A stretch of 64,000 bases of DNA, taken from contig JBJBCN010000002.1 in NCBI GenBank assembly GCA_047285805.1, positions 512,001-576,000 of the forward strand, given 5' to 3'. Positions 27,965 to 60,125 of the stretch are shown in pieces. The stretch's first letter is position 1. Each line of letters starts with the position of its first letter. Origin of the DNA: Synechococcus sp. (GTDB lineage: Bacteria > Cyanobacteriota > Cyanobacteriia > PCC-6307 > Cyanobiaceae). The notes beneath the pieces are model-generated. The model ran no database searches and was not told the DNA's origin. It was given only the letters and a program-made list of their open reading frames with translations. The translations under genes and the position numbers were made by a program.

Positions 27965-29242
27965 TTATCGCGCCCAGACGGTGGGGAGGTCGCTCAGTCG
28001 GGTGGTGGCGGCCCGCGAGAGTTGCTCCCGCCGCATTAACCACGCTGGCTGGAGCCCGCAGGCGGCCCACTGAACCGTCCCGCTGCCGTAGCGACGGTTC
28101 AGTTGATCGATGCTGGCCATGAGGGCCTCCCGGCGCTGCTGCTCGACCTGGCTGAGGGGTTGCAGGAGGTGGTGCTGAAGCTGACTCTCCGGTTGCAGGT
28201 CCTGCAGCAGGATTCCGGCCTTGGCAAAGCGTTTGTAGGGTCGATAAAGGCTGGGAACCATCTGGCAGGCCGCCCGCAGCAGGACGCCGGTGTCGTTGCT
28301 GGCCAGGGGAAGGCTGAGGCTGGCGGCTTGGCTGTAGAAGCCGGGGGCGAAGGGACTGGTGCGGGCAAACACCGTGAGCCGTCCAGCCCGTTGCCGTTGC
28401 CGCCGTAACTTCTCCGCGCCGCGGCTGATGTAGCTGGCGACGGCTTGGCGCAGCTCTTCTTCGGTGGTGACGGGGCGGCTGAAGCTGCGGCTCACGCAGG
28501 TCTCCTGCTTCTCTCCGGCTTGCTGCTCCAGGGGCAGGCAGCTGATGCCCTGCAGTTCCAGTTGCAGGCGGAGGCCCACCACCCCGGCTTTAGCCCGCAG
28601 TTCTCCGCTGGGCATGTCCCGCAGTTGCTGCGCCGTACTGATACCCCGCAGCCGGCACCAGCGGCTCAGGCGCCGGCCGACACCCCAGAGTTCCTCCACT
28701 GGGGTTCGCTCCAGCCAGCTCGTAGTCTCCCCGGGGATGCTGAGGTCAAACACCCCTGCGTGTTGCCGATCCCCCTTGGCGATGTGGTTCGCCACTTTGG
28801 CCAGCACTTTGCTGGTGGAGAGTCCGATGGCAATGGGCAGGCCCAGGTTGTGGCGGATCCGGCCGCGCAGGGCTGTGGCCCAGGGAATGAGGTCGCCGTT
28901 GTTCGGTCTAGGCAGACGGATGAAGGCTTCATCGATGGAATAGACCTCCAGCTCGGCGACGAAGGGCTCCAGGCTGCTCATCAGCCGATTGCTCATGTCG
29001 CCATAGAGCGCGTAGTTGGAGCTGCGTACGACCACGCTGTGCCGTTGGAGGTGGTCGGCGATCTGGAAGTAGGGCTTGCCCATGCCGATGCCGAGTTGTC
29101 GGGCCTCACTGCTGCGGGAGACCACGCAGCCGTCGTTGTTGGAGAGAACCACGACGGGGCGGCCCAGCAGTGCTGGGTCGAAGGCCTGCTCACAGCTGGC
29201 ATAGAAGTTGTTGGCATCGATCAGCCCGAGGGCATCAGCCAT
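27965..29242 (-). CDS. umuC: Y-family DNA polymerase V subunit
   Basis: DANNFYASCE, LSNNDGC, YSIDEAF. Confidence 0.95.
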   Translation of the reverse strand: MADALGLIDANNFYASCEQAFDPALLGRPVVVLSNNDGCVVSRSSEARQLGIGMGKPYFQIADHLQRHSVVVRSSNYALYGDMSNRLMSSLEPFVAELEVYSIDEAFIRLPRPNNGDLIPWATALRGRIRHNLGLPIAIGLSTSKVLAKVANHIAKGDRQHAGVFDLSIPGETTSWLERTPVEELWGVGRRLSRWCRLRGISTAQQLRDMPSGELRAKAGVVGLRLQLELQGISCLPLEQQAGEKQETCVSRSFSRPVTTEEELRQAVASYISRGAEKLRRQRQRAGRLTVFARTSPFAPGFYSQAASLSLPLASNDTGVLLRAACQMVPSLYRPYKRFAKAGILLQDLQPESQLQHHLLQPLSQVEQQRREALMASIDQLNRRYGSGTVQWAACGLQPAWLMRREQLSRAATTRLSDLPTVWAR

Positions 29243-29714
29243 GGGCGGAGAGGCTATGAATGGCGTGGATCGCCACCCCCCAGATCTGGACGTCGCTGCA
29301 GTGGTGTAATTCGAGCGGGGGATAGGCGTTGTTGGCGGCCTCGAGCCGCAATCGGCCTTGGTGCCGGGCGAGGCGCTTCAAGGTGAAGGCGCCATCAAGC
29401 ACGGCTACGACGATCTGGCCCGGCCTGGCTTCGAGGCTGCGGTCCACGACCAGCAGATCACCGTGCTGGATTCCGGCGTCAACCATTGAATCGCCGCTCA
29501 CCCGCAGGAAGAAGGTGCTGTTGGGGTGGCGGATCAGGGTTTCGTTGAGGTCGATGCCGACATCCATGTAGTCATCGGCCGGACTGGGGAAGCCTGCCGC
29601 CACGGTGCTGGTGGCATGGGGCAGCCTCAGCTCCTGGGGCTCCTCCCGCGGTTGGCCCAAGAGTTGCGGCGGGCCGTCGGAGGACAGAGGGGCAGGCAAG
29701 GCCACGGGCACCAC
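29235..29714 (-). CDS. umuD: DNA polymerase V subunit UmuD (S24 peptidase)
   Basis: AAGFPSPA cleavage site, VSGDSM, FTLKRL. Confidence 0.95.
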   Translation of the reverse strand: MVPVALPAPLSSDGPPQLLGQPREEPQELRLPHATSTVAAGFPSPADDYMDVGIDLNETLIRHPNSTFFLRVSGDSMVDAGIQHGDLLVVDRSLEARPGQIVVAVLDGAFTLKRLARHQGRLRLEAANNAYPPLELHHCSDVQIWGVAIHAIHSLSAHG

Positions 29715-29728
29715 AGAGACCTTTACGA

Positions 29729-29744
29729 TAGTCCATCTGTACTA
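29729..29744 (-). promoter_or_regulatory. cyanobacterial LexA box upstream of umuDC
   Basis: Minus strand TAGTACAGATGGACTA, one mismatch from the AGTAC-N3-TGTACT type palindrome, just upstream of the umuD start. Confidence 0.75.
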
Positions 29745-29755
29745 GTCGCGGATGT

Positions 29756-30193
29756 CTAGACCTCCTCGTCCCCCTCCAGAAGCAGTTGCTGGAAGGCCAC
29801 GTAGAGGTCCTGTTCCTCGCTGTTGGCGGGGTGGTGGCGCTGTTTATTGGGCCGCAGTTCCTGGGGTTTGCCTTGGGCTTGCAAGCCGCCGGTAAGGCGG
29901 TTGGTTTGGCTTTGGAGGGCCTGCAGTTGCTCCCGCTGGGCGGCCTGGCGCTTGCGTTCTTGATCGCTTTCGGCCTGGCGGAGGCGATCCATGAGATGGG
30001 GCGGCACCGTGCCGTCCTCGCTGGCCTTCATCAGCTCGCCAAAGAGGGCCTGGGGATCCGTTTCGGTCTCAACGCGATGGCGTTTGCCGGACGCCCCCTT
30101 GGTGTCCTCGTGGCGCTCTGCCTTGGGGAGAGGTTTTGGCAGGGAGCGGCCCAGTTCTTGGAGCCGCTCCAGGCTGCGGGCATCGAAGCTCAT
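29756..30193 (-). CDS. conserved hypothetical protein
   Basis: MSFDARSLERLQELGR...HRVETETDPQALF..S.DGTVPPHL. Confidence 0.75.
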   Translation of the reverse strand: MSFDARSLERLQELGRSLPKPLPKAERHEDTKGASGKRHRVETETDPQALFGELMKASEDGTVPPHLMDRLRQAESDQERKRQAAQREQLQALQSQTNRLTGGLQAQGKPQELRPNKQRHHPANSEEQDLYVAFQQLLLEGDEEV

Positions 30194-30205
30194 GGTCGGA
30201 TGGCG

Positions 30206-30703
30206 TCAGCTGCACTCAAGGGTGTCTTTGGTGGCACGACCGGTGACCGGGTTCATGCCGCTGGCGCTGGCGCAGAGGGTTTTCAGGACGTCGCCGCGGA
30301 ACGGCACGTTGGTGAAGTCCGCACCTTCGATCAGGACATCCTTAAAGCGCGTGTTGAAGGCAAAGGCGTTCTCCAGCACCGCATTACGCAGGTCCGTTCC
30401 ATCGAGGACGGCTGAATCGAGGGTGGCGTCACTCAGGTCGGCGCCCGAGAGGTTGGCGTCCTGGAGCTTGGCGCCGTAGAGGCTGGTGCCACGCAGGTCG
30501 GCCCCTTGGAAATCGGCTTCCCGCAGGTTCGTCAGGTTGAAGGTGGCGCCGTGCAGGTCGACGCCAGCAAAGTCATGGCCGATCAGCACCTGCTTGGCGT
30601 AGTCCATGGCCGCCTGCGCCGGCTGGGCCGGGTGGAGAGCCGCACTGACGAGCAGCAGGGCCAGCAGCGCGGAGCGAAACAGTGCTCGGAAGAAGCGACG
30701 CAT
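30206..30703 (-). CDS. pentapeptide repeat protein (secreted/lumenal)
   Basis: Signal peptide followed by ADLRG/ANLSG/ADLSD repeats. Confidence 0.92.
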   Translation of the reverse strand: MRRFFRALFRSALLALLLVSAALHPAQPAQAAMDYAKQVLIGHDFAGVDLHGATFNLTNLREADFQGADLRGTSLYGAKLQDANLSGADLSDATLDSAVLDGTDLRNAVLENAFAFNTRFKDVLIEGADFTNVPFRGDVLKTLCASASGMNPVTGRATKDTLECS

Positions 30704-30777
30704 GGTGGAGAGCCGGTGTCGAGAAACCCTAGGCAGGGCGCCTTGGGAATTCTGAGCAGGGATACAGGCTGCGGCTG

Positions 30778-30926
30778 ATGGGGCGATTCGAGTCGCAACG
30801 GCGGGGCGATTGGGCGGAACAGCGGGCCCTGCGCTTGCTGCGGGCTGCGGGTTGGAACCGACTCTCCCAGCGTTGGCATTGCCGCTGGGGGGTAATGGAT
30901 TTGCTGCTCCATACACCGCAACGGCT
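30778..30926 (+). pseudogene. yraN: YraN-family nuclease, 5' fragment interrupted by the element
   Basis: GDWAEQRA..L...GW...RWHCRWGVMDLLL is the YraN N-terminus; similarity ends at the att core. Confidence 0.85.
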
Positions 30927-30951
30927 GCTATTGGGTGACTACTTGCAAAAA
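30923..30951. repeat. left attachment site (core plus P-arm)
   Basis: GGCTGCTATTGG, overlapping TTGGGTGACTACTTGCAAAAA (30931-30951), which is a 17/21 inverted match to 39937-39957. Confidence 0.85.
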
Positions 30952-31042
30952 GGCTTAAAGTCAGTCCACAAGTGCCTTTTGGGCTGACTGCGATATGCAC
31001 GGTGGCTCTGTCGCCAAGACCAGTGGAGCCAATCCTGTGGCG

Positions 31043-32715
31043 ATGAACAAGCTGGTCGCGATCTCCTATGCGCGTGTTTCGACCGGCAAGCAGTCGGAGG
31101 AGAGCGCGAGTGGATTGGAGCGTCAGGAGTTAGCCATTGCTCGCTGGCTTGAAGCGCACCCTCAGTACGAACTGGACCGCGAGATCAAGGCAGTCGGCTG
31201 GGCGCGAAAGCGGGACGTTTTGAGTGGTTCATCAAGGAGCTTCAGGAGGGCCGACTGCCACAAGGCACCTGCCTTGTGGTGGAGAAGATCAGCCGGTTCT
31301 CCCGAGAGCCTGTAATGGAGGTGCTGGAGACCCTCATTCGGCTGTTTCGAGCTGGGGGGTGCGTAGCGGCTTGCGAGTTGGGGGGTGAGGTGCTGAGCAA
31401 CTTGGACGGTCAAAACGGCGCTGTTTTCATGCTTGTGGGGGCGATACAGCGGGCTCGGGGTGAGTGGGAGGAGAAGCGGGACCGTGCTGCTGGCAGCAGT
31501 GCGAAGCAACGTCGATTGATCGCAGAGGGTGAATAGCCTTTCAGGGCAGGACAGAAGGGCAAGCGAGCTGACTACCCCTTCTGGCTGGACTTCAACCCCG
31601 ATGCCGGCCAGTTCGAACTGAACCGGCATGCCGAGTGGTTACGCCAAGCCTTTTTGTGGGCTCCTGAAGTGGGCAGCACTGTCATTGCTCGCAAGCTCAA
31701 GGAGATGGGCGTGCGTTCTCCCTCTGATGGACGCAAGGTCCTTTCGCACAAGCGCATTACCCGGCTCTTGAAAGACCGCGCAGTACTTGGGGAGCGGCAA
31801 TTCGTTGATGCCCGCCACAACCCCGTGGGCGAGCCAATTCGTGGGGTTTATCCGCCCGTGGTGACCGAAGACGAGTGGCGTCTTGCGAGAACTGCCATAG
31901 AGGCTCGTTTTGGAGGAAATCGGCGAACAGGCACAAAGCACCACTTGCTTTTTGAAGGCCAAGTTTTTTGTGCCCACTGCGGAGGCACCGTTGGCGTGGA
32001 CCGCCAAACCAGGCAATTGGCGGGGGGCGGATCGAAGGTTTACGAGTACCTGCGGTGCAGGCAGCGGGATAAAGACAGCAGCCTTTGCGAGGCACCAGCG
32101 CAGCATCCCTACGACGAAGAACGCATGCTTCGGCGTCTACATGATTTTCGGTGGGCGGAATTCTTCAGCGATGAGAAGCACGAAGCCGAAGTGACGGCAG
32201 CGCGGAAGCAAGTGCTATGTGCCCAAGGGCATCGGAGTGATGTTGAACGTGACTTGACCAACCTCAGAACCGCGGCACTTGAGCAGGCGAAAGCAGGCGG
32301 AACTGTCAGTGCCTGGCTGGAACACGAAGCAAAGAAGTTGGAGCAGGCGTTTTCAGATGCTCAGGCGGCTGAGAACGTCGCAATCAGCGCTTTAGGGAGC
32401 CTTGAACGGCGCAGAACGGGTACAGACGCCCAACGGGCTATCCGGAAGCGTGTTGAGGCTTTCGTGGCCTCAGACAGGCAAGACGTTCAGCAGCGCAAAG
32501 CGTTTATCCAGTGGCTCTCGTCAGAAGAGCTGGTGATCGAGTTCAACCTCGAGACAGGAACGATGGAGCTTGGGGTCGGTCAGGTTGCTTCTGACGGCCG
32601 CTTGGTTGCACTGGATATGCGGCTTGAAGATGCGGCGGCCTTTGGGCTCCCCGTCGAGGAGTTCCGGGCATTCATCAAGGAGAGGGATGAAGCGATTGCA
32701 GCCCAGCTCCAATAG
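31043..32715 (+). pseudogene. large serine recombinase (integrase) with a frameshift and an internal stop
   Basis: YARVSTGKQ catalytic Ser; frameshift near 31199; LVVEKISRFSRE; in-frame TAG at 31534-31536; recombinase domain YPPVVTEDEW; Zn ribbon CAHCGG...YLRC...C; coiled coil. Confidence 0.9.
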
Positions 32716-32770
32716 GCCCTCTTGCAAGAAACTGTTGCGCGCTTAAACGGCCGTGGACACACTGAAGCTC

Positions 32771-33007
32771 GTGCGTCCCACGAATCTGGTCGGTCCTTAC
32801 CGCCAGGCTCGTCCTAGTGGATGCGCCCCCCTTGCGCTGACGGCAACACCAAGGCCATAACCGCTGAGGACACGGTCCGAGAGAACCCCGTGATCCGAGA
32901 CGGGGGAGTGCCAAGCTCCCCCAACTCAACACTCCCCGCTACTGAGCAGTGGGTCGGGGAGCTGTTGTGCTTGTTATCAGTGACCTTGATCCTTGGCGGC
33001 GAGGGGG
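32771..33007 (+). ncRNA. candidate structured non-coding RNA
   Basis: Multiple nested helices found by eye, several with G-U pairs on the + strand; no convincing ORF. Confidence 0.45.
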
Positions 33008-33047
33008 AGGAGAGATGAGCGCAACCCAGGAGTTAGCAGGCCATATG

Positions 33048-33797
33048 TCAGAGCTTGGATTCTTCTGGAACCTCCCTTGAGGACGGAACTCGTGGAGCCA
33101 CATGCAACGACTTTTTCTTTCTTCCGTCAGATGAGGGCTGCCAATCTGAATAAACAACCTTCCAAGCTTTGACGGTTTCTGGACCAATCTCATTGATCCT
33201 TAGACCGGTGGATCCATCATTTGAAAGCAAGACAAAAGCTTTTCCATTCACCATGTCGTAGTTAGCCAAAGCGGCCGCAATTTCTTTGTTGACCCTAAAA
33301 ACGCCATCGCACCCATTAACAACCAGATAGCCGTCACCATTCTTGATTCCAAAAGACTGAATTGACTCACTACCAGTGGTCACGCGTCGACCGAAAGACT
33401 TATTGGCAACAGTTTCTTGCCTGACCCGGATTGTGTTCCGACCAAAGAACGAAGCAACCCTGAAGGATTTATTGTAATTGCGGTCAAATACACCAATCGT
33501 CGTCCCGGTGATTGGGTTTTTCAGGATTACTGGTTTGGAAAGAGGGAATTTGGTGCTCTCAAGGTCTTGCGACCTCCAGTCTTCGGTAATAGTGAAAACT
33601 TCGACGCCGGGAAAGACCCTGGGTAGCTTCTCTGGTTCATATTGAATGTATTCTTCGGTTCTATATGGCGAACATAGAAGGAGCTCCTCCTTTAATGCAT
33701 CGCCGTATTTCTTTGGCGATATTTCATATGCCGCTGCAGGCAATGAAGAGGCGAGAAGTGTTGCGCCAGCAAGGGTTAGCGGAGCGAGGGAGCGCAT
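33048..33797 (-). CDS. secreted hypothetical protein (element cargo)
   Basis: 249-aa AT-richer ORF with signal peptide MRSLAPLTLAGATLLASSLPAAA. Confidence 0.75.
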   Translation of the reverse strand: MRSLAPLTLAGATLLASSLPAAAYEISPKKYGDALKEELLLCSPYRTEEYIQYEPEKLPRVFPGVEVFTITEDWRSQDLESTKFPLSKPVILKNPITGTTIGVFDRNYNKSFRVASFFGRNTIRVRQETVANKSFGRRVTTGSESIQSFGIKNGDGYLVVNGCDGVFRVNKEIAAALANYDMVNGKAFVLLSNDGSTGLRINEIGPETVKAWKVVYSDWQPSSDGRKKKSLHVAPRVPSSREVPEESKL

Positions 33798-33859
33798 AGG
33801 CTTCTTTTTTCTATATTTAAGCTAGCATCACTTCTGTAGTCACTTGTGGGTGAAGGCCG

Positions 33860-34138
33860 ATGATCGCCTCTGGGCTTGTGGTGTCAGCGCTATTTGGGAT
33901 TGCACTGCTGAGCGCTGAATCGCCGGCGAACGCGGCTCCTTCAGTCTTGGTGAAGAGCGGCGTCAACTGCCCTGGAAGCTACGTAAAAGCAGGGAGAGGC
34001 AAGAATTGCCAAGCAGCGCCCGAATATGTAGACATCACCTATCTCGGAGAGAATATAAGGGAATCCTGTAAGCCCACCTACACCCGTCTTAATGCTGGCG
34101 ACAGCAAGTGGTGCGTAAAATACAGCGAGCAATACTAA
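33860..34138 (+). CDS. small secreted Cys-paired protein (element cargo)
   Basis: Signal peptide ending ANA; two C-x2-(S/T)Y...C units. Confidence 0.65.
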   Translation: MIASGLVVSALFGIALLSAESPANAAPSVLVKSGVNCPGSYVKAGRGKNCQAAPEYVDITYLGENIRESCKPTYTRLNAGDSKWCVKYSEQY

Positions 34139-34196
34139 TGCGCTCGGATAACTTCACTTGCAAGAGTGATGGGTTGACGTGTATTTGCATCCGCAA

Positions 34197-34547
34197 CTAC
34201 CTCCTTCTCGCCTTCTGCATTGCTTGTTCAATCAGAATCCATTCCGCTGCGGTGTGACGTGTCTTCCACCCGTACTGCTCGCATAGCGCGTTGCAATAGT
34301 CCCCAATCCGCAGGATCGTCTCCAGGTCAACGCGGCTAAGCCTCTCCTTAGCCACCACGTTCCGGTCGCTCCAGTTCACCACCTGAGCAACGCGCTCCCG
34401 TAGCCCATTCATCTCCAGCTGCCGATGACCTCTCTCATTCAGTGAAATGAAGTCATCCAGGTAGCCGTCATCCATCAAGTTCTGAAGGCTTGAACGACTC
34501 CGATATCCCAGCTCTCTTGCTGCCGCCGCAATGCTCTTAATGGCCAC
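34197..34547 (-). CDS. HTH DNA-binding protein, possibly terminase small subunit (Nu1-like)
   Basis: N-terminal SIAAAARELGYRSRSSLQNLMDDG winged-HTH-like segment; lies downstream of a cos-like motif. Confidence 0.55.
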   Translation of the reverse strand: MAIKSIAAAARELGYRSRSSLQNLMDDGYLDDFISLNERGHRQLEMNGLRERVAQVVNWSDRNVVAKERLSRVDLETILRIGDYCNALCEQYGWKTRHTAAEWILIEQAMQKARRR

Positions 34548-34611
34548 TATTCGCTAAATCTCAGCGCCTAAACCAGCCTAAGGAATTTTGCACTGACGCT
34601 AGATGAGACAT

Positions 34612-34653
34612 GCGCTTTCGGATGACCCGCAATAAAGCAAATAGCAAGGACCC
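34612..34653 (-). other. lambda-type cos-like packaging signal
   Basis: Minus strand GGGTCCTT-GCTATTTGCTTTATT-GCGGGT-CATCCGAAAGCGC; GGGTCCT is the lambda cosQ sequence. Confidence 0.45.
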
Positions 34654-34710
34654 TGCAAATACGTCATTGGATACTGATTTATTGGCTTATGGGTGTGACT
34701 GAAGAAATAA

Positions 34711-34736
34711 AAAGCCCCTGCGTTTGCAGGGGCTTT
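34711..34736 (-). terminator. intrinsic terminator of the beta-barrel cargo gene
   Basis: Perfect AAAGCCCCTGC/GCAGGGGCTTT stem with adjacent A-run. Confidence 0.85.
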
Positions 34737-34770
34737 AGGTGGCTAGCCTACCACCTTCTAATGCATAATG

Positions 34771-35727
34771 TCAGCACCGCAATATCCACGGTATGTATGG
34801 ATCCAGGTAATGGCAATTATCGTGCACCCGCACATCCCTGTTACTAGGCGTTGATGTTAGGGCTTTAGCAGCGGCATTGGTTTTCGGTGTTTCTTTGCCA
34901 GGACCGCCATTGGTATTGAAGCGCCACTTGATATCAGCGGAGAAGCGTGACTTGAAGGCACTGTCATAAGAGAGGTTGGTGCCAACGGTTAGTCCGTTGT
35001 TGATGGCATAAGCCAGACGACCCAAGACGCCAGAGCCATCGGCATCGCCTGCATCGCCGTTTTGGTAGTAGTAACCGACAGAGGCTCTTAAGGCTGGCGT
35101 CAGGTTGTAACCAGCATCTAAGCCATAGGTGTCCAGTGCACCGCCTTGATAGACGGTGTTGAGCTGTTGCTCGGTGTCACCCGTTGGAATGAGCGCATAG
35201 GCATTGAAGTTCCACTTATCGCTCATCGCTTCTGCATTGACGGCAGCCTGCTGGAAGAAAGCCGTGCGTGAGGCATAGACAGGGATGCCTGTATCGGCAT
35301 CACCCGTGCTCATTGGTCGGGTGTCATAGCCCGCATTCAGTCCATACATCCAACTGCGGTCACCATTGAGCCAGCGATAGCCCAGGCGGGCTGAGGTGGA
35401 GATGGTGGTGCCAGCAACGGTGGTGTTGATGATGCTGCTGCTGTTACCCCAGTCCGACAAGTTGGCATTCGCCAAGACATCAGCAAAGAAGATGCTGTTG
35501 CTGCCGACCACCAGTGGAAGGAAGCCACCCAGACCGGCTTGGTTGGGGGTGCCAGCGGCTTGGGTTTGCGCATGGATGCCGACTTGAGGTTTGACGATGT
35601 CCTTGAGCTGAATGCTCATCACGCCTAGGTCACTGGCGCTGCCATGCCCATCAGCTTGTGCAGGGAGAGTGGCGACTGCGAATGCAGATGCCACCAACCC
35701 GATTGATAAAGGACGCAGCATCAGCAC
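34771..35727 (-). CDS. outer-membrane beta-barrel protein (inverse-autotransporter beta-domain-like picocyanobacterial family)
   Basis: Signal peptide; GTPNQAGLGGFLPL, STSARLGYRWL, GLNAGYD and alternating beta-strand pattern; ends NRDVRVHD plus a short Cys tail. Confidence 0.75.
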   Translation of the reverse strand: MLMLRPLSIGLVASAFAVATLPAQADGHGSASDLGVMSIQLKDIVKPQVGIHAQTQAAGTPNQAGLGGFLPLVVGSNSIFFADVLANANLSDWGNSSSIINTTVAGTTISTSARLGYRWLNGDRSWMYGLNAGYDTRPMSTGDADTGIPVYASRTAFFQQAAVNAEAMSDKWNFNAYALIPTGDTEQQLNTVYQGGALDTYGLDAGYNLTPALRASVGYYYQNGDAGDADGSGVLGRLAYAINNGLTVGTNLSYDSAFKSRFSADIKWRFNTNGGPGKETPKTNAAAKALTSTPSNRDVRVHDNCHYLDPYIPWILRC

Positions 35728-35780
35728 TGGTGGGCAGTTGGGGTGATGGTGACCTACTTACGGTGACTTGTCGTGAGAAA

Positions 35781-35807
35781 GCCCGAGGGGGCATCACTCC
35801 CTCGGGC
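35781..35807 (-). terminator. hairpin after the capsid gene
   Basis: GCCCGAGGG/CCCTCGGGC stem with a short A-run on its left. Confidence 0.6.
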
Positions 35808-35837
35808 GGAACTGCACCACTGCAGGAGCTCTCGCGG

Positions 35838-37436
35838 TTATGCGATCGCGTCCTGCATCGCAGCGAAGCTTTCAGGGTGTCTGACGGCGATATCGATCGA
35901 CTGCAGCGCTCGGATGCCAGTCGTGCCCTTGGCGAAGTCGGTGTAGGAGTCCACCAGGATTCCCAAGGTGCCGTACAGGCCAATCAGCAGGTCGCTGAAG
36001 TTGCCGTAGACGATCGCGCTCAGGTTGGTGCCAGTGCCCTTGCTCAAGTTGCTCGGGACGTTGTTGCTGACCTCGAAGCGACGTCCAGCAATCTGCGAGC
36101 GGCCTAGCTAAGTGCCATAAGGCGAAAGCAGGTACTGGTCTTGGGAGTCCTTGAGCTTGGAGAGGACTGCTTCCACCTTGGCGTTGGTGAGGAAGCCGCA
36201 GCTAGCGACATCAGCGTTATCGACGGCCACCTCCTTCTTGAGGTCCATCAGGTGATCGAGGGTCGGAGCCAAGCCATTGGTCCCGCCCGCAACAGAGCCA
36301 ATGCCTGTGGTGTTCAAGATCCCTGTGGGTTGGTTGCTACTGCCACTGCCGTTGATGGCAGCGGTGTCGATTGCATCGGCCAGCAGCGCAACGAAGTCAG
36401 CACGGATCAGCTGCTCGATGTCCGGGGTGCTTTGCAGGTTCATCAGGTGAGAGAACTTGCTAAGTGCACCAACGGTCTTGGGGGTCATCGTCACGGTGCC
36501 GATGGTCCCGGTGCTTTCGGTGACGCTGTCGCTGTCATCAGCACCAAACCAATAGGCAGTCGCAGTGCCTGTTCTCTTGGGGATGCTCACGTCGCCCACC
36601 AAGCCGCCAAGGAAGGTGGCGCCAAGCTCGGCAACGGCCAAGCGATCACGCAGCGCCTCAATGAAACTGGTCGCCAGGTGATCGGTAGCGATCAGGTTGC
36701 CGCCGGCGCTTGCGGTTCCCGCCACATAGGTGCGTTTCTTCCAGCCGTTATCCGGGACAAAGAAGCCTTGAGTACGCCGCCCATTGCGGTGCTCAAGCTC
36801 TTGGTTCACCTCAGCTTCTCGGCCGCTCAGCCCCCGACCTGAGGAGATGCCTTGCGCAGCGCGGACGATGCTGAACTGCTCGGCCTCTCGCCGGTACTCG
36901 GCATCAGGGTCAAGGCCAATGGGGGAAATCGGTTCGTAGGTCATTGGTGTGTGAGTCGTAGTTGGTAGGGCGCGGTTCACGCCAATCGATGCGTCGGCCG
37001 GGATGCTCACGACGCTCAGCTCAATCGGTTGCCAGCGAGTGACGCGCATCACGCCTGCGTCCTGCTCGGCATCCAGCACGGAGTAGCCGACCGAGATGTT
37101 GGGCCTCACGCCTGCTTCAACGTCCTTGCGCACTTGCCTGGCGAGGTCGTTTGTGGCCCAGGTGATGCGGGCCATGCAGCGGCGTCTCTCATCGATCCAT
37201 GCCCGCTCGACAATCCCGAGGATTCGATCCGGGTCGTGGTTCAGCAGCAGTGGTGCTGCGCCTCCATTCAGCCGAGTGAGGTCGACCGCTTCTCGGTCGT
37301 GATCCAACACCTCATCACCGAAGTATCGAGTGACAGGTGTTTCCGAGCTGAATGAGAACTCAAGCTGATTGGAGTCAGCTTTGGTGTCATCGATCGTGAG
37401 ATAACGCCGCTGGATTTCGGCGGCGATGGTTGTCAT
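35838..37436 (-). pseudogene. fused HK97-type prohead protease plus major capsid protein, one in-frame TAG at 36108-36110
   Basis: Protease motifs FSFSSETPV, LLLNHD, ISVGY, ELSVVSIPAD; capsid motifs GGNLIATD, DTAAINGSG, KLKDSQDQYL; the frame continues after TAG with LGRSQIAGRRFEVSNNVP...YGNFSDL...DIAVRHPESF. Confidence 0.9.
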
Positions 37437-37657
37437 TGACTCCCTCTATAGAGAGGTCTCGTAGATAACGACGTTGCTGAGCGCTAGCGAGGCAATCTTC
37501 CAAGGGATTTGGAACCCTTGGCATGTCGTCATCGACGAGTGATTTCATGTCCAATGCTAGAGATATATCTACTCCGATAATAGTCGCTTCTCTAAATACG
37601 CCTAATCAGTGTTAGTCAATGCTTCTGGGCGCCTGCAGAGGGGTTGCTGAGAGGAAA

Positions 37658-37753
37658 AAGAGGTTTAAGAGGTTAAAGAGGTTGCACCATCACACGCATG
37701 TATGGCTTTCTTGAAGTCAGACCCCTGTAGCGAGACAGCCTCTAAAACCTCTT
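37658..37753. repeat. iteron-like repeats, putative replication origin of the element
   Basis: AAGAGGTT x3 at 9-nt spacing (37658, 37667, 37676) and an inverted AACCTCTT at 37746. Confidence 0.6.
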
Positions 37754-37766
37754 TTCCCCTTAGTGG

Positions 37767-39137
37767 TCACCTGGTCAGTGCTTTAAGCACCTCATCGACT
37801 GGGCGAAAGAGGGCTGCGGGAGGCCCGCCTCGTTTCCCGTTTGATTGTTGGTAGCCGTCTTCAACGATCAGGTGTTTGCGCTCAAGGGCTTGCAATGCCT
37901 CTCGCGCCTTTGATGTGGCATGCACTTCAAGACCTAAGGCATTGCCTAGGTGAACCGCATCCATACCTTTCTTTGTCGATTGGTAGTGATCGCATAGGTC
38001 TGTCAGGGCCTTGTGCTGACGATCTGTGAGGTCGTCGAGTACTCCCTGAATCGCGGCTTTTCTTGCCACCTCCTCGCCGGATCCATGAAGGATCCAGCCA
38101 GCGTTTGTTTGCTCGATCAGCAAGTCGATCGGTGCAGCTTCACGACCCTCTGCCGCCAACCTGCTCCGCCTGTCTCGTTGAGCGAGCGGGTTGTCATCGC
38201 CGTCCCCAAGAGACGCGAGAGCCGCCGTTTGGGAAGCGGCTGCCGGCAGAGAGTTATTGCCTCGACTGGCCTCTGAGGCCCGCAATGCACCAGGCCGTTT
38301 TTTTGCGTGGTGGATCAAGAGCAGCGTCGCCTCGTGGGGAGCGAGCGCTTCTGTCAGATCGATGCAGGGGTCAGCAAAGGCGGCATCGCATTCCTGCAGC
38401 CCAAGCTTGCTGGTGCACGCGTGATAGCTGTCGACCAGAACAATCAGCCTTGGGTAGCGAAGGCAGTAGCCGACGATTTCCTCAATGCCTTCCTCGTCCA
38501 CATGGAGTGGTGCGCCCTTGTGGAAGAGGCCAACAATCGCCGGGTGCATGCTCCTGTCTGGGTTGAGCAGACCAGCGAGCTGAAGGCACTTTGCCCAATC
38601 CCGTTGCGGTTGGTCCGTTCCAACAATCAGAACCTTGGCGTCAGGCCATGGATGCAGGGCCTGTCCGAGAAACTCTGACTCCCCTCGGACTAATGCCCCG
38701 AGGACGGCACAAGCCAGTCGGCTTTTTCCCGTCTTTGGGGCACCGACAACAAGATTGCTCGTCCCTCGCAGCAGGATGTTCGACCAAAGCCAGGGTGCTT
38801 CTGCAAGCGAAAGCTTTCCGCCTTGCGGGATGGGTTCAGCAGCACCCACCAGCCTTCGCCGCTCTTGCCCAAGGAGGCGGCGAAGCTCGTCGTCTCGGAC
38901 GCGCGTCTGAAGTTCAGATGCGGTTCGGCGTAGGTGGATGAGTCGCTGATGGCTGGGAATGGCCTCATCGCAAAGAAGATCCCGCGTCTTCCTCTGCAGG
39001 GTGCGTAGGTCCTCTGCTGCCGATGGCTTGCGTCGAGGGGCGGGGTCAACGCGTTTGAGCTGACCCTGAACGCGTTGTTGCCGTTCCCTTTGATCAAACG
39101 CGTCTGAGTGGTCGAGCCATGCGAGTGGGTCGGTCAT
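37767..39137 (-). CDS. RepA-like AAA (AAA_25/RecA-fold) helicase with C-terminal HTH
   Basis: Walker A GAPKTGKS, Walker B LIVLVDSY, LLLIHHAKK, SRGNNSL; ATG overlaps the upstream TGA. Confidence 0.85.
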   Translation of the reverse strand: MTDPLAWLDHSDAFDQRERQQRVQGQLKRVDPAPRRKPSAAEDLRTLQRKTRDLLCDEAIPSHQRLIHLRRTASELQTRVRDDELRRLLGQERRRLVGAAEPIPQGGKLSLAEAPWLWSNILLRGTSNLVVGAPKTGKSRLACAVLGALVRGESEFLGQALHPWPDAKVLIVGTDQPQRDWAKCLQLAGLLNPDRSMHPAIVGLFHKGAPLHVDEEGIEEIVGYCLRYPRLIVLVDSYHACTSKLGLQECDAAFADPCIDLTEALAPHEATLLLIHHAKKRPGALRASEASRGNNSLPAAASQTAALASLGDGDDNPLAQRDRRSRLAAEGREAAPIDLLIEQTNAGWILHGSGEEVARKAAIQGVLDDLTDRQHKALTDLCDHYQSTKKGMDAVHLGNALGLEVHATSKAREALQALERKHLIVEDGYQQSNGKRGGPPAALFRPVDEVLKALTR

Positions 39138-39355
39138 CGGGACCTCCTCGCCCATTCGGCCATTCGGAGGCAGCCAATCGGGTCTTGGTGCTCCAAAAGG
39201 GCTGCTGCTCGGTCGTAATCCGCTGCTGACCAAGCTGGTTCGCTGCTGAGACGCAGCAGCGTGCCGGTCAGATCAACTGAGTCCAGAGGTCGCGAAAAAT
39301 CTCCGTAATGCCGCCAGCGATAACGAGTAACGGTAATTAGGGTGTCATCAGACAT
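39134..39355 (-). CDS. hypothetical protein of the element
   Basis: ATGA-coupled to the helicase gene. Confidence 0.55.
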   Translation of the reverse strand: MSDDTLITVTRYRWRHYGDFSRPLDSVDLTGTLLRLSSEPAWSAADYDRAAALLEHQDPIGCLRMAEWARRSR

Positions 39356-39419
39356 TTGTTCGTGACTCCCAGCCCCAACTGGGGGTTTTTTCATTTTTCG
39401 AGAACCTCGATTCGTTGGG

Positions 39420-39662
39420 TCAGGGCTGAAATCCGGTCTTGAGGTGGGCGCTCACCTCTTGGGCCAAGTCACGGGCGGCTTCGCTGGAAGTGCGATTGAC
39501 GACGACCGCCTCCTGCAGCTGACCAACAGCGGCAAGCATTGCGGTGGTGCTATCGATCAAGCGGCGTTCGAGTTCTGTTGATGCCAAAGGCATCAGCTCC
39601 TCGCGCCAGGCATCGCATTGCGTCTGGACGCGTTCCGCCGTCCAAAAAATGTCCGCTTTCAC
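39420..39662 (-). CDS. hypothetical helical protein of the element
   Basis: GTGA-coupled to the upstream RHH gene. Confidence 0.55.
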   Translation of the reverse strand: MKADIFWTAERVQTQCDAWREELMPLASTELERRLIDSTTAMLAAVGQLQEAVVVNRTSSEAARDLAQEVSAHLKTGFQP

Positions 39663-39850
39663 TTGGCTGCTCCTTTTTTGAGCTCTTCCTCCTGGTGCGC
39701 GAGGGCAAAGATCACCATTGCTCTGAGTAGCTCCGCTCGACGGACCCTGTAAGCGGCCGCCAAGGCATCTACGCGAGCTGCGGTCGGTTGGTCGATGTCA
39801 CACGAGAGCCTCACGTCCCGTGATGGCCTCACTGGCAGTTGAACGGTCAT
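39659..39850 (-). CDS. ribbon-helix-helix (CopG-like) regulator
   Basis: VRLSCDIDQPTAARVDALAAAYRVRRAELLRAMV is a beta-helix-helix pattern. Confidence 0.7.
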   Translation of the reverse strand: MTVQLPVRPSRDVRLSCDIDQPTAARVDALAAAYRVRRAELLRAMVIFALAHQEEELKKGAAK

Positions 39851-39936
39851 GGTTCCAAGTTCTGGACCGAAGTACGAACCAGTGTGTGGAACGTTCAGTA
39901 GCCCTGCAGTGCAGTCGATCTCAGCCGAGTGAATGC

Positions 39937-39971
39937 TTTTCGCAAGTAACCAACCAAGAGGCTGCTGTTGG
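39937..39971. repeat. right attachment site (P-arm plus core)
   Basis: TTTTCGCAAGTAACCAACCAA followed by GA-GGCTGCTGTTGG. Confidence 0.85.
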
Positions 39972-40063
39972 TGGAGGTCAAAGTCCGGAACCGGAGTGGG
40001 TCTGTGCCTTGGCACCCCTTGCCTCCCAGTCGCCGGCCCGTGCTTTGGCTGTCTTGGGCCTGA
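39962..40063 (+). pseudogene. yraN: YraN-family nuclease, 3' fragment
   Basis: LLLVEVKVR...PLPPSRRPVLWL; in frame with the 5' fragment after excision. Confidence 0.8.
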
Positions 40064-40112
40064 GCGGACCGGACTTGAAGCAATGTGGAGATAAGGCCTG
40101 CTCCGCTCACTG

Positions 40113-40925
40113 ATGTCCTTCGCGGCCCACCGTGCCCGCAAACGCTTTGGCCAGCACTGGTTGAAGGATCAGTCCGTGCTTGATCAGATCGTGCGGGCCG
40201 CTGAGCTGACCGCCGCGGACACCGTTCTGGAGGTGGGACCCGGTCGCGGAGCCCTGACGGAGCGGCTGCTGGATTCCGCCGCCAGCGCGGTTCATGCGGT
40301 GGAGCTGGATCGTGATTTGGTGGCAGGGCTTCAGGACCGCTTTGGCGCCAACCACCGCTTTGTGCTCACCGAAGGGGACGTTCTGGCCGTCGACCTGCCG
40401 GAGGCCACCGCCGTGGTCGCCAACATCCCGTACAACATCACAGGCCCTCTGCTGGAGCGCCTGGTGGGTCGCCTGGATCGCCCAGTGGCCGAGCCCTATC
40501 GACGCCTGGTCTTGTTGGTGCAGCAGGAGGTGGGAGAGCGGATTCGTTCCCGTCCCGGCAGCAGTGCCTTCTCAGCTCTAAGTGTGCGGATGCAGTTGTT
40601 AGCGCGCTGCAGCACGGTCTGCCCGGTCCCGCCTCGCTGCTTTCAACCGCCTCCGAAGGTGATGAGTGAGGTGGTGGCCCTCGATCCACTGCCTGTGGAG
40701 CAACGGCTGGATCCCGCCCTGGCCAAAACGGTGGAGATGCTTCTCAGGCGCTGCTTTGCTGCCCGCCGCAAGATGTTGCGCAACACACTCTCGGGTTTGG
40801 TGGATCCGGAGCAGCTGTTGGCCCTTACCGAGGAGGCGGAGATTGGCCTGCAGCAGCGTCCCCAGGAGGTGGCACCCGAGGATTGGGTGCGACTCGCGGC
40901 GGGCTTGAATCGGCTCACGTCCTAA
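40113..40925 (+). CDS. rsmA: 16S rRNA dimethyladenosine transferase
   Basis: [25 protein letters not shown]. Confidence 0.96.
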
Positions 40926-40941
40926 GCAACGCACCCTCGCC

Positions 40942-41874
40942 ATGGCAGAGCTGCAGGCCAGCGCCCCCGCCAAGATCAACCTGCATCTCGAGGTGCTCGG
41001 CCTGCGCCCCGACGGCTTTCACGAGCTGGCGATGGTGATGCAGACCTTGGATTTGGCCGACAGCCTCAGCCTGCGGCCCACGGCTGACGGGGCGGTGACC
41101 CTCCGCTGCGGATGTGCGGACCTGCCCACCGACGGCAACAACCTGATCGTTAAGGCGGCCGAGTTGATCAAACGACGGGTCGGCTTGCCTGAGCTGGGCG
41201 TTGCCATGGACTTGACGAAGCGCATTCCGATTGGCGCAGGTCTTGCGGGGGGCTCCAGCAATGGTGCAGCGGCCCTGGTGGGTCTAAACACTCTGTGGGG
41301 CTGTGGTTTCAGCAGCGCGCAGCTGGAGGCCATGGCCGCTGAGCTCGGCTCGGACATGCCCTTTTGCCTCGATGGTGGGACCCAGCTCTGCTTTGGCCGG
41401 GGAGAGGTCCTCGAAACCGCTGGCTTGGCCGAGCCGCCGGCTTTGGGGGTGCTGCTGATCAAGCATCCCGACGCGAGCGTCTCGACTCCCTGGGCCTATG
41501 AGCAGTGCCGTGAGCAATTCGGGGCGGACTACCTCTCGGGTGAGGAGGCCTTTGAGCAGCGCCGGCAGGCCCTGCGTCAAGCCCCCTTGCTCCAGGGCTT
41601 GAGCGGCAATGGGCCGCTTCCCGCCATACGCAATGACCTTCAGAAGGTGGTGGAGTCCGAGGTGACCAGTGTTCGAGAGGGCCTCTCGATCCTGCGGCGG
41701 GCCAACGGGGCGTTGGCGGTGGCCATGAGCGGTTCTGGGCCAAGCCTCTTCGCGGTGTTCCCCGATCGAGGGGGTGCGGATGCGGCCCAGAACCAGCTGG
41801 CTGAAGACCTGGCGGATGGCGGTTTCGAGTCCTGGGTCTGCCGCTGCACGGGCTCTGGTGCCACGCTGGTCTGA
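40942..41874 (+). CDS. ispE: 4-diphosphocytidyl-2-C-methyl-D-erythritol kinase
   Basis: [28 protein letters not shown]. Confidence 0.96.
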
Positions 41875-54776: not shown

Positions 54777-55341
54777 GGACTGTCGCAGTCCGCTTCTTAG
54801 TTTCCAATGGTGGCAACGAACTGCCTGACGACTGCGTGGGCCATCAATGAATCCTCCTGGCACTCCTGCAGCCACCTCATCCAGAGCTTCTGCGGACACG
54901 CACTGAGAGAGCTCAGTGACCCGACAAGGGGGAGGTCATTCCGCTTCCACAAAACACTCCTTGCCGCGAGCTGGTGCTGGGGGGCTCTTGGTTGGGCACA
55001 TACGTAGGTAACTGACAGATGGCACTGCAGTGATTCCGAGCACCGGTATGTACCCGCGCCCTTCATACCTTCATACGGAGGGAACATCGAAGCCTTCTGT
55101 TCGTATCCGGGCGGAGGCTTTTCTCTCTAACTGCGTGGCGAGACAATACGGGAGCCCCACCCCACCTCAAAAATTCCTACTAGCAAGTAGTGGTCTGGAT
55201 GTTTTAGTTGGGTACAGAGAATGGTAACTGATTGATGCCAGCGAAGTAATTTTAGCAACGATGTCCGACTGCCCTCTCCATACCGTAATTAGGAGAGAAC
55301 TCCTTGTCCTTCTGTTCCCTTTCCCCTCCTGAAATTCGCCA

Positions 55342-55533
55342 ATGGATGACGCAGTGCCTATGGATAGGGTGGCTCGGGAGCGACTGGGACTCCTTTCTCA
55401 GCTTTGGAAGCTGACCCCTGGGCAACGCTCTCAGATGCTTCGACAATTTGGAGCGACGACAACTATGTGCGATACAACCATCCCTGTCGAAGTGGCGATG
55501 CGTGCTCTCCAGATTGCGAAGGCCTCGGGGTGA
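55342..55533 (+). CDS. small hypothetical protein
   Basis: 63-aa ORF followed by a terminator-like hairpin AGCCGGT/ACCGGCT at 55571-55589. Confidence 0.4.
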   Translation: MDDAVPMDRVARERLGLLSQLWKLTPGQRSQMLRQFGATTTMCDTTIPVEVAMRALQIAKASG

Positions 55534-56156
55534 TTTCCTAGGTGGGGAGCTGTCTGGAGTGCGAGAAAAAAGCCGGTCACCAACCGGCTCCTTTCTTTCC
55601 CTGTGGACTGCACTCAGCGGTTATGGCTCACGTCTACACAAAATGCCAGTAAGCGGGTGCGCAGTTGCAATTGAGCTTCTCTACAAACACTAGCTTCACC
55701 CCAATGGGCTTTGCCATAAATGATCCGAGGAACGCTGATTGGGTGCCGACTTCAGTCCAAGCAACTGCAACAGGGAGATCACCTGACCAAGAAGTGTCGT
55801 CAATGGATGACCAGACGGGAAAAGCAGCTCGGCTGGTGCCCAGAGGTCGCCTGATGACGAATGACGTTCTCCCCTATGGACTGCTTCGGACGCCAGGAGC
55901 AGGTCTCCACTGCTGCCTATACTGCCGTCCTTACGACAGCAACTACTGCCACCTTCATGAGGGCTCTATCCCTGGACCGAAGGTGTCATCAGTCAAGTGC
56001 TGGAACAGTGCACATGGTTTAAAGCTCGACTGAGCAAGTGTTTCTAGCCCTGAAGGCGAGTGACAAGTTCCTTAAAGCCTTTATCTCAAAACAGGAGAAA
56101 ATTAATCCACCCGCGAAGGAATAAATTTTCACACTTACAGCTGTAGGTTTGTTTAT

Positions 56157-57383
56157 CTATAACAAGCCCACGGAATAAGGATGCTCGCCCAGGACGAAGT
56201 CAATTAGGCTACCTTCGTGCTCGATGAGAGCTTTTTCGTACTCTATCCCTAAATTAGAAGCTTCAATCAGGATGTCTTGAGCTCGCCACTGTGTTGGGAT
56301 AATTAGGACATCAGGCTTCCACTTGAGCAGCTCTTCGGGTGCCTTGATCTCTTGTCCTACGCCAGGCACATAAGTCCCGATCTTGCGAAGATCTGAATCA
56401 ACTACGATTTGAATATCTTCACAGCTGATTCCGTAGTGGTGCATAAAAGCAGCACATTTCCCTGTCCCTCCCCAGATCGCCACTCGCTTACCTTGCGTCA
56501 AGAGCATTGAGATCTGATTGGAAATTGTTGATATGGAAGTCGTTGTGGAGGCAGAGTAAAGCAGAGCTTCTTCCTTAATGCTTCTCTGTCTTTGACCTGG
56601 ACATAGCTCTACGAGACCGCAGACAACCTCTCCATCATATGCATGAGATATGTTAACGACCTGTCCTGCGCTTGACAGCAAGTATTTGAATGACTCAGTT
56701 GTAAATTGCGACGGGTGCTCATAGTAAAAGTCTGCTAGCCGCCTCGTGCTAAAAACCCTATCAATGCATGGAACTTCGCAATAAAGGTAGACTGATTTCT
56801 CTATCTCATTGCTGGCCCATGCTAATGAGTGGAGGAATGATGATGGCGCTGTCAGATGCTCGATGACATGTCTCATCAAAAGAAGATCAGGCTGAAGCTT
56901 CTTCAGATGCTCAAACGGGTCGAATAGTGATTTATGAAATTCGATAGATATCTCGCTAAGATTTACATCTCCCGATGGATCAAAGCCCAAGAATCTGCCT
57001 TTGCCTTGATACGAATTCGCCATACTGCCTAAAAAACTGCCATCACCACAGCCAATATCAATGACAATTGGCTCGGGCGGAAGTGAATTTGCAAGTCTGT
57101 CTCTTAAATTACCAAGATGATCTTTCCATATTGCCCCACGATTAAACATTTTGTTTGGCTTGTCGCCATAAGGTATATCTTTCCAGTCAAATAGGTGATT
57201 CCATACATGTGAACAATTAAGGCACTGGATGTATTCTTGTTCAAATGTGGGCACTTGTAGCGCTGCCTTCTGTGAATCAGCCCAGGCAATCGTTGCTAGA
57301 GGTTTCTTGCCTGCTTTAAAAATAGTGACAGCTAGTGTGTAGCCACAAACAGGGCATTGCTTGCATTGATATGACCTTCTCAT
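56157..57383 (-). CDS. SAM-dependent C-methyltransferase (NDP-sugar methyltransferase-like)
   Basis: CPVC...CLNC zinc site, IDIGCGDG, RHVIEH, FYYEH, AIWGGTGK, VVDSD..KIG; ATGA-coupled to the upstream gene. Confidence 0.85.
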   Translation of the reverse strand: MRRSYQCKQCPVCGYTLAVTIFKAGKKPLATIAWADSQKAALQVPTFEQEYIQCLNCSHVWNHLFDWKDIPYGDKPNKMFNRGAIWKDHLGNLRDRLANSLPPEPIVIDIGCGDGSFLGSMANSYQGKGRFLGFDPSGDVNLSEISIEFHKSLFDPFEHLKKLQPDLLLMRHVIEHLTAPSSFLHSLAWASNEIEKSVYLYCEVPCIDRVFSTRRLADFYYEHPSQFTTESFKYLLSSAGQVVNISHAYDGEVVCGLVELCPGQRQRSIKEEALLYSASTTTSISTISNQISMLLTQGKRVAIWGGTGKCAAFMHHYGISCEDIQIVVDSDLRKIGTYVPGVGQEIKAPEELLKWKPDVLIIPTQWRAQDILIEASNLGIEYEKALIEHEGSLIDFVLGEHPYSVGLL

Positions 57384-59755: not shown

Positions 59756-60125
59756 CTCCGCTGTAGAAGCATAACGTCTGAGCCACCAACAAAGATCTGG
59801 CGAATCTACTGCCCACCTAACTTGATTTGAAACTCCATGCCAGGTTCAAGACCAGGCATCCCGGTGTATGCCTTGCCTATCAGCAGGTTGGAATTCTTTT
59901 GAACCTTTTGGCAAGGCGTTCTGCAGCCGTTGGAAGCTTCGCCAGCTCTATTTCCTGGTCGGTCTTGGCCAGGCAGCTGATGGATTTCCTACGAGCTTCT
60001 GCGAGTTCGTGTCCGAGCCGTATACGCCAAATCTTTTTGCCGATCTGCTCTTGCAGCGCTCTTGGCACCGCTCCGGAGAACCACCAGTCCTTGACTTGCT
60101 GAATCAGATAGGGGGGTTTGGCCAG

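Follow-up and report, generated by a model that had tools for sequence, protein, structure and literature searches.

A probable capsid-encoding phage satellite lodged in the transformation gene yraN of a Synechococcus genome

Picocyanobacterial satellites that bear capsid genes have been reported as tycheposons resembling phage-inducible chromosomal islands (PICIs) (bioRxiv 10.1101/2020.12.28.424599), and marine satellites with serine recombinases as virion-encapsidated integrative mobile elements (VEIMEs) (PMC9618062). The subject here is a 9,037-bp element with a satellite-type gene set, inserted in the gene yraN of Synechococcus sp. (GCA_047285805.1, contig JBJBCN010000002.1, positions 512,001 to 576,000, forward strand; this whole stretch of 64,000 nucleotides is called the window and its genome G000). 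The element is very probably a capsid-encoding phage satellite of the PICI-like tycheposon type that integrated in yraN by its own large serine recombinase and is now grounded, and whose integrase clade docks mostly in transformation genes.

Compared with the PICI-like tycheposons of Prochlorococcus, the window element uses a serine and not a tyrosine integrase, and its target is a protein-coding gene for transformation where theirs is a tRNA; the tRNA-targeting tyrosine integrase of the tycheposon clade is absent from it. The published account saw no cargo, whereas the window element has extra open reading frames (ORFs), and that account allows a serine-integrase minority among tycheposons (bioRxiv 10.1101/2020.12.28.424599). 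The VEIME satellites of module 3 are likewise small, carry serine recombinases and are linked to Cyanobacteria; VEIMEs are described without major capsid genes, whereas the window element has a protease-capsid fusion (PMC9618062).

YraN is reported as the nuclease partner of ComM that acts on displacement loops (D-loops) during transformation, from transposon-sequencing screens that included Synechococcus elongatus (bioRxiv 10.1101/2024.02.06.579203), and is also needed for transformation in Bifidobacterium (PMC13660472). AbaR and other comM-inactivating elements of Acinetobacter likewise disable the D-loop step (PMC11472951, PMC11441513), and the transformation block has been proposed to shield elements from curing (PMC11472951). 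AbaR-type elements combine a Tn7-like enzyme with a comM target, whereas the window element pairs a serine integrase with yraN. Among serine integrases, targets are enriched for Mg-chelatase-like, Competence and N_methyl (pilin) domains, and the attB and attP of the competence-disrupting enzymes were likewise rebuilt from attL and attR; two Cyanobacteria entries of that survey, cluster2119 and cluster7255, appear by eye to be distant relatives of the window integrase (PMC10083194). The window clade differs from those systems in that its targets are two genes unrelated to each other, its insertions have either orientation and its core is one of several dinucleotides. The Mg-chelatase-like targets are presumably of comM type. 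The terms yraN, UPF0102 and PF02021 were not found in eight supplements of PMC10083194, nor yraN as a target in the main texts of PMC13626063 and PMC11472951. As an integration target, yraN was not found in the literature searched, and such sites may be listed in subscription papers, in bioRxiv supplements or in large databases of islands. The window element is a grounded example of a known system type, of which the target gene and the target-switching pattern are apparently undescribed; the same holds for the integrase and att pair, put forward as a candidate new pair in a previous annotation of the window made from its letters alone (the sequence-only reading).

The features at the two ends of the element are as follows.

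30778-30926, plus strand: 5′ part of yraN, codons 1-50, decayed (E39V, L40M, K46T and others; Pfam UPF0102 E=5e-4, NCBIfam YraN models, codon comparison)
30899-30952, plus strand: attL, with B arm 30899-30924, predicted CT core 30925-30926 and P′ arm 30927-30952 (register the same in related loci)
30956-30961, plus strand: conserved TAAnnT hexamer, possible −10 element of the integrase promoter (offset conservation across aligned arms)
39936-39989, plus strand: attR, with P arm 39936-39961, predicted CT core 39962-39963 and B′ arm 39964-39989 (arm comparison, seawater contigs)
39964-40063, plus strand: 3′ remnant of yraN; 115 bp deleted at 39992/39993 and 1 bp inserted near 40019-40021 (alignment to relatives; the same in run X2)

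The insertion is precise. A block of 12 bp at 30923-30934 is found again at 39960-39971, 11/12 bases being identical and the offset 9,037 bp, and both junction sequences quoted in the sequence-only reading are found at their positions. The inner arms form a dyad centred on the CT at 30925-30926/39962-39963; the shorter arms of that reading score the 17/21 it had counted, and the full 26-bp arms score 20/26. When the left inner arm is compared with both strands of the 2.37-Mb genome, the right inner arm is the sole non-self match above 18/26, and seven places score 18/26. The att pair was not among the top matches listed by a generic repeat finder, and the arms were compared directly instead. 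Joined, they give an attP of about 50 bp with inverted arms around a 2-bp core, the anatomy of large serine recombinase systems. Serine integrases recombine as a tetramer that brings attP and attB together and makes cuts staggered by 2 bp; the core dictates orientation when it is not palindromic. The CT is taken as the core because of the dyad symmetry and the register in relatives, and strand exchange probably took place at this dinucleotide, as the sequence-only reading had proposed.

Joining the outer arms rebuilds an empty site that agrees, ungapped, with the uninterrupted yraN of the two nearest relatives (50/54 positions in G023, locus L049; 49/54 in G033, locus L050), the comparison proposed earlier as a check. 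The flanks of yraN in both loci are the same genes as in the window, a pentapeptide-repeat gene and rsmA. Gene content and relatives place the host, a marine cyanobacterium, among the picocyanobacteria. Seawater run X5 contains two records with the yraN 5′ sequence as a loose end right before 39960, which is the empty-site form. The target lies, as had been noted, between the D and the EVK of the PD-(D/E)XK nuclease motif of YraN.

The TAAnnT hexamer adjoins the P′ arm at an equal offset in 12/13 aligned arms, with a 1-nt shift in the remaining one. It may be the −10 element of the integrase, and the promoter would therefore sit beneath bound integrase; a sigma-70 scan at attL gave no −35/−10 pair and no promoter or terminator consensus. 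A degenerate attL pattern run over 401 genomes returned 14 matches, the window not among them, and is uninformative.

Between the att sites the element carries the following genes.

31043-32715, plus strand: large serine recombinase pseudogene with Resolvase, Recombinase and Zn-ribbon domains (Pfam on pieces; 81-89% identity to full-length P0002)
33048-33797 (minus), 33860-34138 (plus), 34197-34547 (minus) and 34771-35727 (minus strand): four accessory ORFs with no family match (ORF and profile scans)
35838-37436, minus strand: prohead protease-HK97 major capsid fusion gene, interrupted by TAG at 36108-36110 (profile scans; tblastn against L110)
37767-39233, minus strand: AAA_25-family ATPase, probable replication helicase/primase partner (profile scans; 84% paralog elsewhere in the genome)
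39134-39394 and 39420-39662, minus strand: two small ORFs, function not assigned (ORF list)
39659-39853, minus strand: ribbon-helix-helix (RHH)/CopG-like regulator (Pfam RHH_1 E=0.002; L073 has a 58% homolog next to attP, and L053 a CopG-like gene at the corresponding place)

By its genes the element is laid out as a capsid-encoding satellite: it has an integrase, a replication gene and, of the two alternative markers (major capsid protein or terS), the capsid gene, within roughly the usual 10 kb and without a full virion set. Terminase, portal and tail genes had no match among the element ORFs scanned, and a single-protein viral scan gave one weak, unrelated match. The domain set of a large serine recombinase (about 550 aa) is present only as a pseudogene. 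Aligned to P0002, the integrase has lost 1 nt at 31199-31200 and has a TAG at 31534-31536, two lesions where the sequence-only reading had implied a single repair. The interrupted capsid fusion gives one in-frame tblastn match to the intact capsid of L110 (57% over 547 aa). Both nonsense lesions are TAG, and stop-codon reassignment was considered and rejected: the integrase stop aligns with a Lys in P0002 and the capsid stop with a Glu in L110. In the circular form the RHH gene is divergent from the integrase, with attP between them, a position that makes it a candidate control or directionality factor.

Insertion would have begun with the element's own large serine recombinase joining a dyad attP of about 54 bp to attB within yraN, strands being exchanged at CT so that the PD-(D/E)XK motif was split between D and EVK; the window's integrase probably catalysed this step. 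The life cycle and spread would depend on a helper phage, and the RHH gene may exert control.

The gap between the capsid and ATPase genes (37650-37760) contains three A/G-rich repeats spaced by 9 bp and a 20-bp inverted repeat, possibly a replication origin or packaging site. The family of the ORF at 34771-35727 has no Pfam, NCBIfam or PHROG match and about 10 further copies in the genome at 59-94% identity, several of them clustered at C2:1.135-1.153 Mb; another copy adjoins a pilin-targeting integrase in L064.

Insertion by this integrase clade is recurrent. An alignment of eight full-length homologs led to 22 loci, whose integrase-side arms share a conserved motif at a distance of 16 nt from the core, by which they were aligned. 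These junctions fall in yraN (5), in a minor-pilin gene (8), in free attP (4) and in one unrelated site, with three contigs too short and one junction unresolved; independent insertions are fewer than these counts, because several loci are near-duplicates. The clade is picocyanobacterial, and 13/14 assignable integrated junctions lie in two genes. Four loci (L057, L058, L063, L069) use the yraN site in the same orientation as the window, with cores CT and TT. A fifth (L072) is reversed at an equal codon position, and its core AG is the reverse complement of the window's CT, a pair that fits the rule that the core sets orientation. The type IV minor-pilin gene (GspH/N-methyl) has the core CC in all eight loci, and an intact copy is present in L124. 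The clade is therefore not tied strictly to one site: besides yraN, entered in either orientation, its junctions lie in a pilin gene and at a single unrelated site.

The sequences of L064, integrated in the pilin gene, and of the free form L073 coincide from the predicted CC core on and part immediately 5′ of it. Of the first 12 bases of the B′ arm, 8 are common to yraN and pilin. L053, from a viral collection, is a circle of about 9.12 kb that has a terminal repeat of 110 bp together with capsid and protease genes, and L068 is a permuted copy of it; the attP dyad of L053 is weak (13/26) and played no part in assigning the core. Capsid and primase genes are present in L057, and in G018 yraN is split at the same CT by an element whose end resembles that of L073. 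In the integrase tree, the window enzyme falls in a 14-row group (support 98) together with the yraN users, and a nested group (100) is made up of the pilin users; this is a quick version with long branches, and the careful search is unfinished, so only its starred groups are used. A search of the genus with the C-terminal piece of the integrase matched 0/44 other genomes, which is no evidence of absence because the later alignment matched 1/29. A GenBank phage search returned distant integrases only (22-28% identity among the best 20 of 50 records), a profile search of representatives gave 81 proteins at E<=1e-30 without genomic context, and tblastx of pilin fragments against the window's own genome gave noise.

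In a family-wide draw, a related integrase is present in 26/401 genomes, and 15 distant loci from the 25 genomes other than the window's were examined. In G119, a 9,204-bp element (L117:8768-17970) splits yraN near codon 26-27; its integrase has 29% identity and lies far off in the tree, and rejoining yields full-length YraN. This element is apparently intact and encodes an 893-aa primase/helicase. A PLD-domain gene, presumably of the cyanobacterial comA/comEA type, is interrupted in L120 (G244) and L123 (G196) by a further clade of serine integrases, at a different position in each. The element at L110:2093-12091 (G400) sits in a glyoxalase gene. Its integrase is distant, its capsid fusion is intact (57%) and its AAA gene resembles that of the window, a combination that shows exchange of integrase modules. 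At L074:1-284, the start of a distant integrase (32%) lies 140 bp away from the 5′ end of rsmA, the usual place of yraN.

The yraN of the window genome is a pseudogene, and excision would not restore a working gene. The sequence-only reading held that excision rejoins yraN in frame; the joined outer arms do give an open frame in frame, with the 82 codons it had counted, but not a restored gene, since intact YraN has 120 aa in L049 and L050 and the product is shortened by the 115-bp deletion at 39992/39993 and the 1-bp insertion near 40020. In 59 codons the rejoined gene has seven lineage-specific substitutions at residues common to both relatives, including E39V and L40M in the GELDL motif. 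Nonsynonymous and synonymous codon differences stand at 13:6 in yraN against 11:42 in two neighbouring genes (Fisher p=4e-4), and at 6:11 in a control of intact against intact yraN. Elsewhere in G000 (100% complete), comM is in fragments with stops and comEC is down to 58/270 profile positions, and a profile search gave no match over cut-off for dprA, PilB/PilT or GFxxxE pilins. Decayed loci lie at C2:1366338-1367411 and C2:1266966-1267130, and genome-wide the transformation and type IV pilus system is decayed or gave no match. The four relatives searched have comM, comEC and pilus-ATPase matches over cut-off, and yraN is found in 34/36 same-genus genomes searched, G018 among them as a partial match. 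The closest relative, G023, has no dprA match and a stop in one pilus ATPase, and its yraN is intact, a less advanced state of the same loss; competence decay in the window lineage therefore probably began before the insertion. Judged from these genes, the remaining transformation machinery of the host is lost as well. With its broken integrase and capsid genes, in a yraN that is a pseudogene and a host without transformation, the element copy is grounded.

The state of yraN bears directly on whether the element could act as a reversible switch that, like the skin and SPbeta elements, excises on a cue, restores functional YraN and turns on natural transformation. The precise in-frame joint of the outer arms, the full-length YraN obtained by rejoining in G119 and the much greater depth of the empty site in seawater contigs speak for it; in the contigs of X4 and X5 the integrase has a depth of 4-7 against about 1,000-2,000 for the flanks, ratios that are not cell fractions. 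In the window genome, however, the rejoined gene lacks 38/120 residues and yraN shows excess nonsynonymous change, which leaves no functional target after excision. The integrase, with its two lesions, is not intact, nor is the target pathway, in which breakage or the lack of a match affects comM, comEC, dprA and the pilus ATPases. The 115-bp deletion refutes the switch for this genome, and a switch is very improbable overall. It is scarcely credible that the lesions are assembly errors in a live element. The genome was assembled in three large contigs, and single-base frameshifts are generally known as a frequent assembly artefact, but the contigs of run X2, which contains the window strain, agree with the window over 29500-32866, 35896-38097 and 39080-41500 with zero differences and zero gaps, and a 115-bp deletion and two stops are atypical of such errors. 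X2 is possibly the source sample, and its match therefore excludes consensus error and does not amount to an independent strain. At about 97% identity, contigs of X5 (seawater) and X13 (sponge) both show a single gap and a single additional letter in the integrase frameshift region, the gap being placed only to within that region, which suggests that intact integrase alleles exist in nature. This comparison covered 4/19 listed runs.

For the choice of site, selection for a transformation block and a motif shared by dispensable genes are both kept as explanations. Sequence alone might decide it, if a short CTG-rich motif is common in GC-rich coding DNA and hits survive since transformation genes are dispensable. 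The agreement of the yraN and pilin B′ arms, the off-target insertion in L060 and the state of G023 fit this explanation; motif and dispensability alone would, however, predict scatter over many genes, whereas 13/14 assignable junctions lie in two genes, both linked to the pilus or transformation, and the 29%-identical integrase independently uses a different yraN site. On balance it is rather unlikely. A broader scenario, offered tentatively and at less than even odds, is that satellites convergently evolved serine integrases that dock in yraN at two sites, that one clade shifted between yraN and a competence pilin, keeping the B′ arm and changing core and orientation, and that intact copies such as that in G119 reversibly block curing transformation. 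For competence, S. elongatus needs minor pilins (bioRxiv 10.1101/822627). Several points weigh against the preferred reading of a satellite whose clade docks in transformation genes. The pilin targeted here is typed only to the GspH/N-methyl level, and its role in competence is presumed. The integrase of L060 is 89% identical in DNA to that of L063 and sits in unrelated sequence, so specificity is imperfect, and for several of the 15 distant loci the gene entered or adjoined is a glyoxalase, SLOG, amidase, DUF1254, UPF0047 or phasin gene. The seven bases at 30923-30929 are the same at both element ends, and the exact crossover is therefore not readable from the window alone. In X2 no attP or attB joint was seen among contigs, which drop rare forms; a relative from the clade exists as the circle of about 9.12 kb in the viral collection.

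With this element, yraN joins the transformation genes disrupted by mobile elements, which fits the idea that elements attack the D-loop step of ComM and YraN by which they are removed; the idea now also takes in the abundant picocyanobacteria of marine and fresh waters. The window copy is a fossil and says little about present host biology. The integrase family offers naturally varied cores (CT, TT, AG, CC), and the conserved yraN attB, which most members of the genus possess, is a possible landing site for picocyanobacterial engineering. If convergent docking is true, the clade would be a natural series on how serine integrases change target.

Satellite remnants lie elsewhere in G000, at C2:1337671-1339292, 296408-297531 and 1144341-1145676, with the 84% AAA paralog, capsid 3′ ends and paralogs of the ORF at 34197; a tRNA-Pro is near the second. 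Host DNA 1.2 kb beyond the left end of the element carries a umuDC-like pair (window 27965-29714), named by eye from its translation. At window 55001-60000 the GC content is 44-54%, against about 62%, possibly marking another island.

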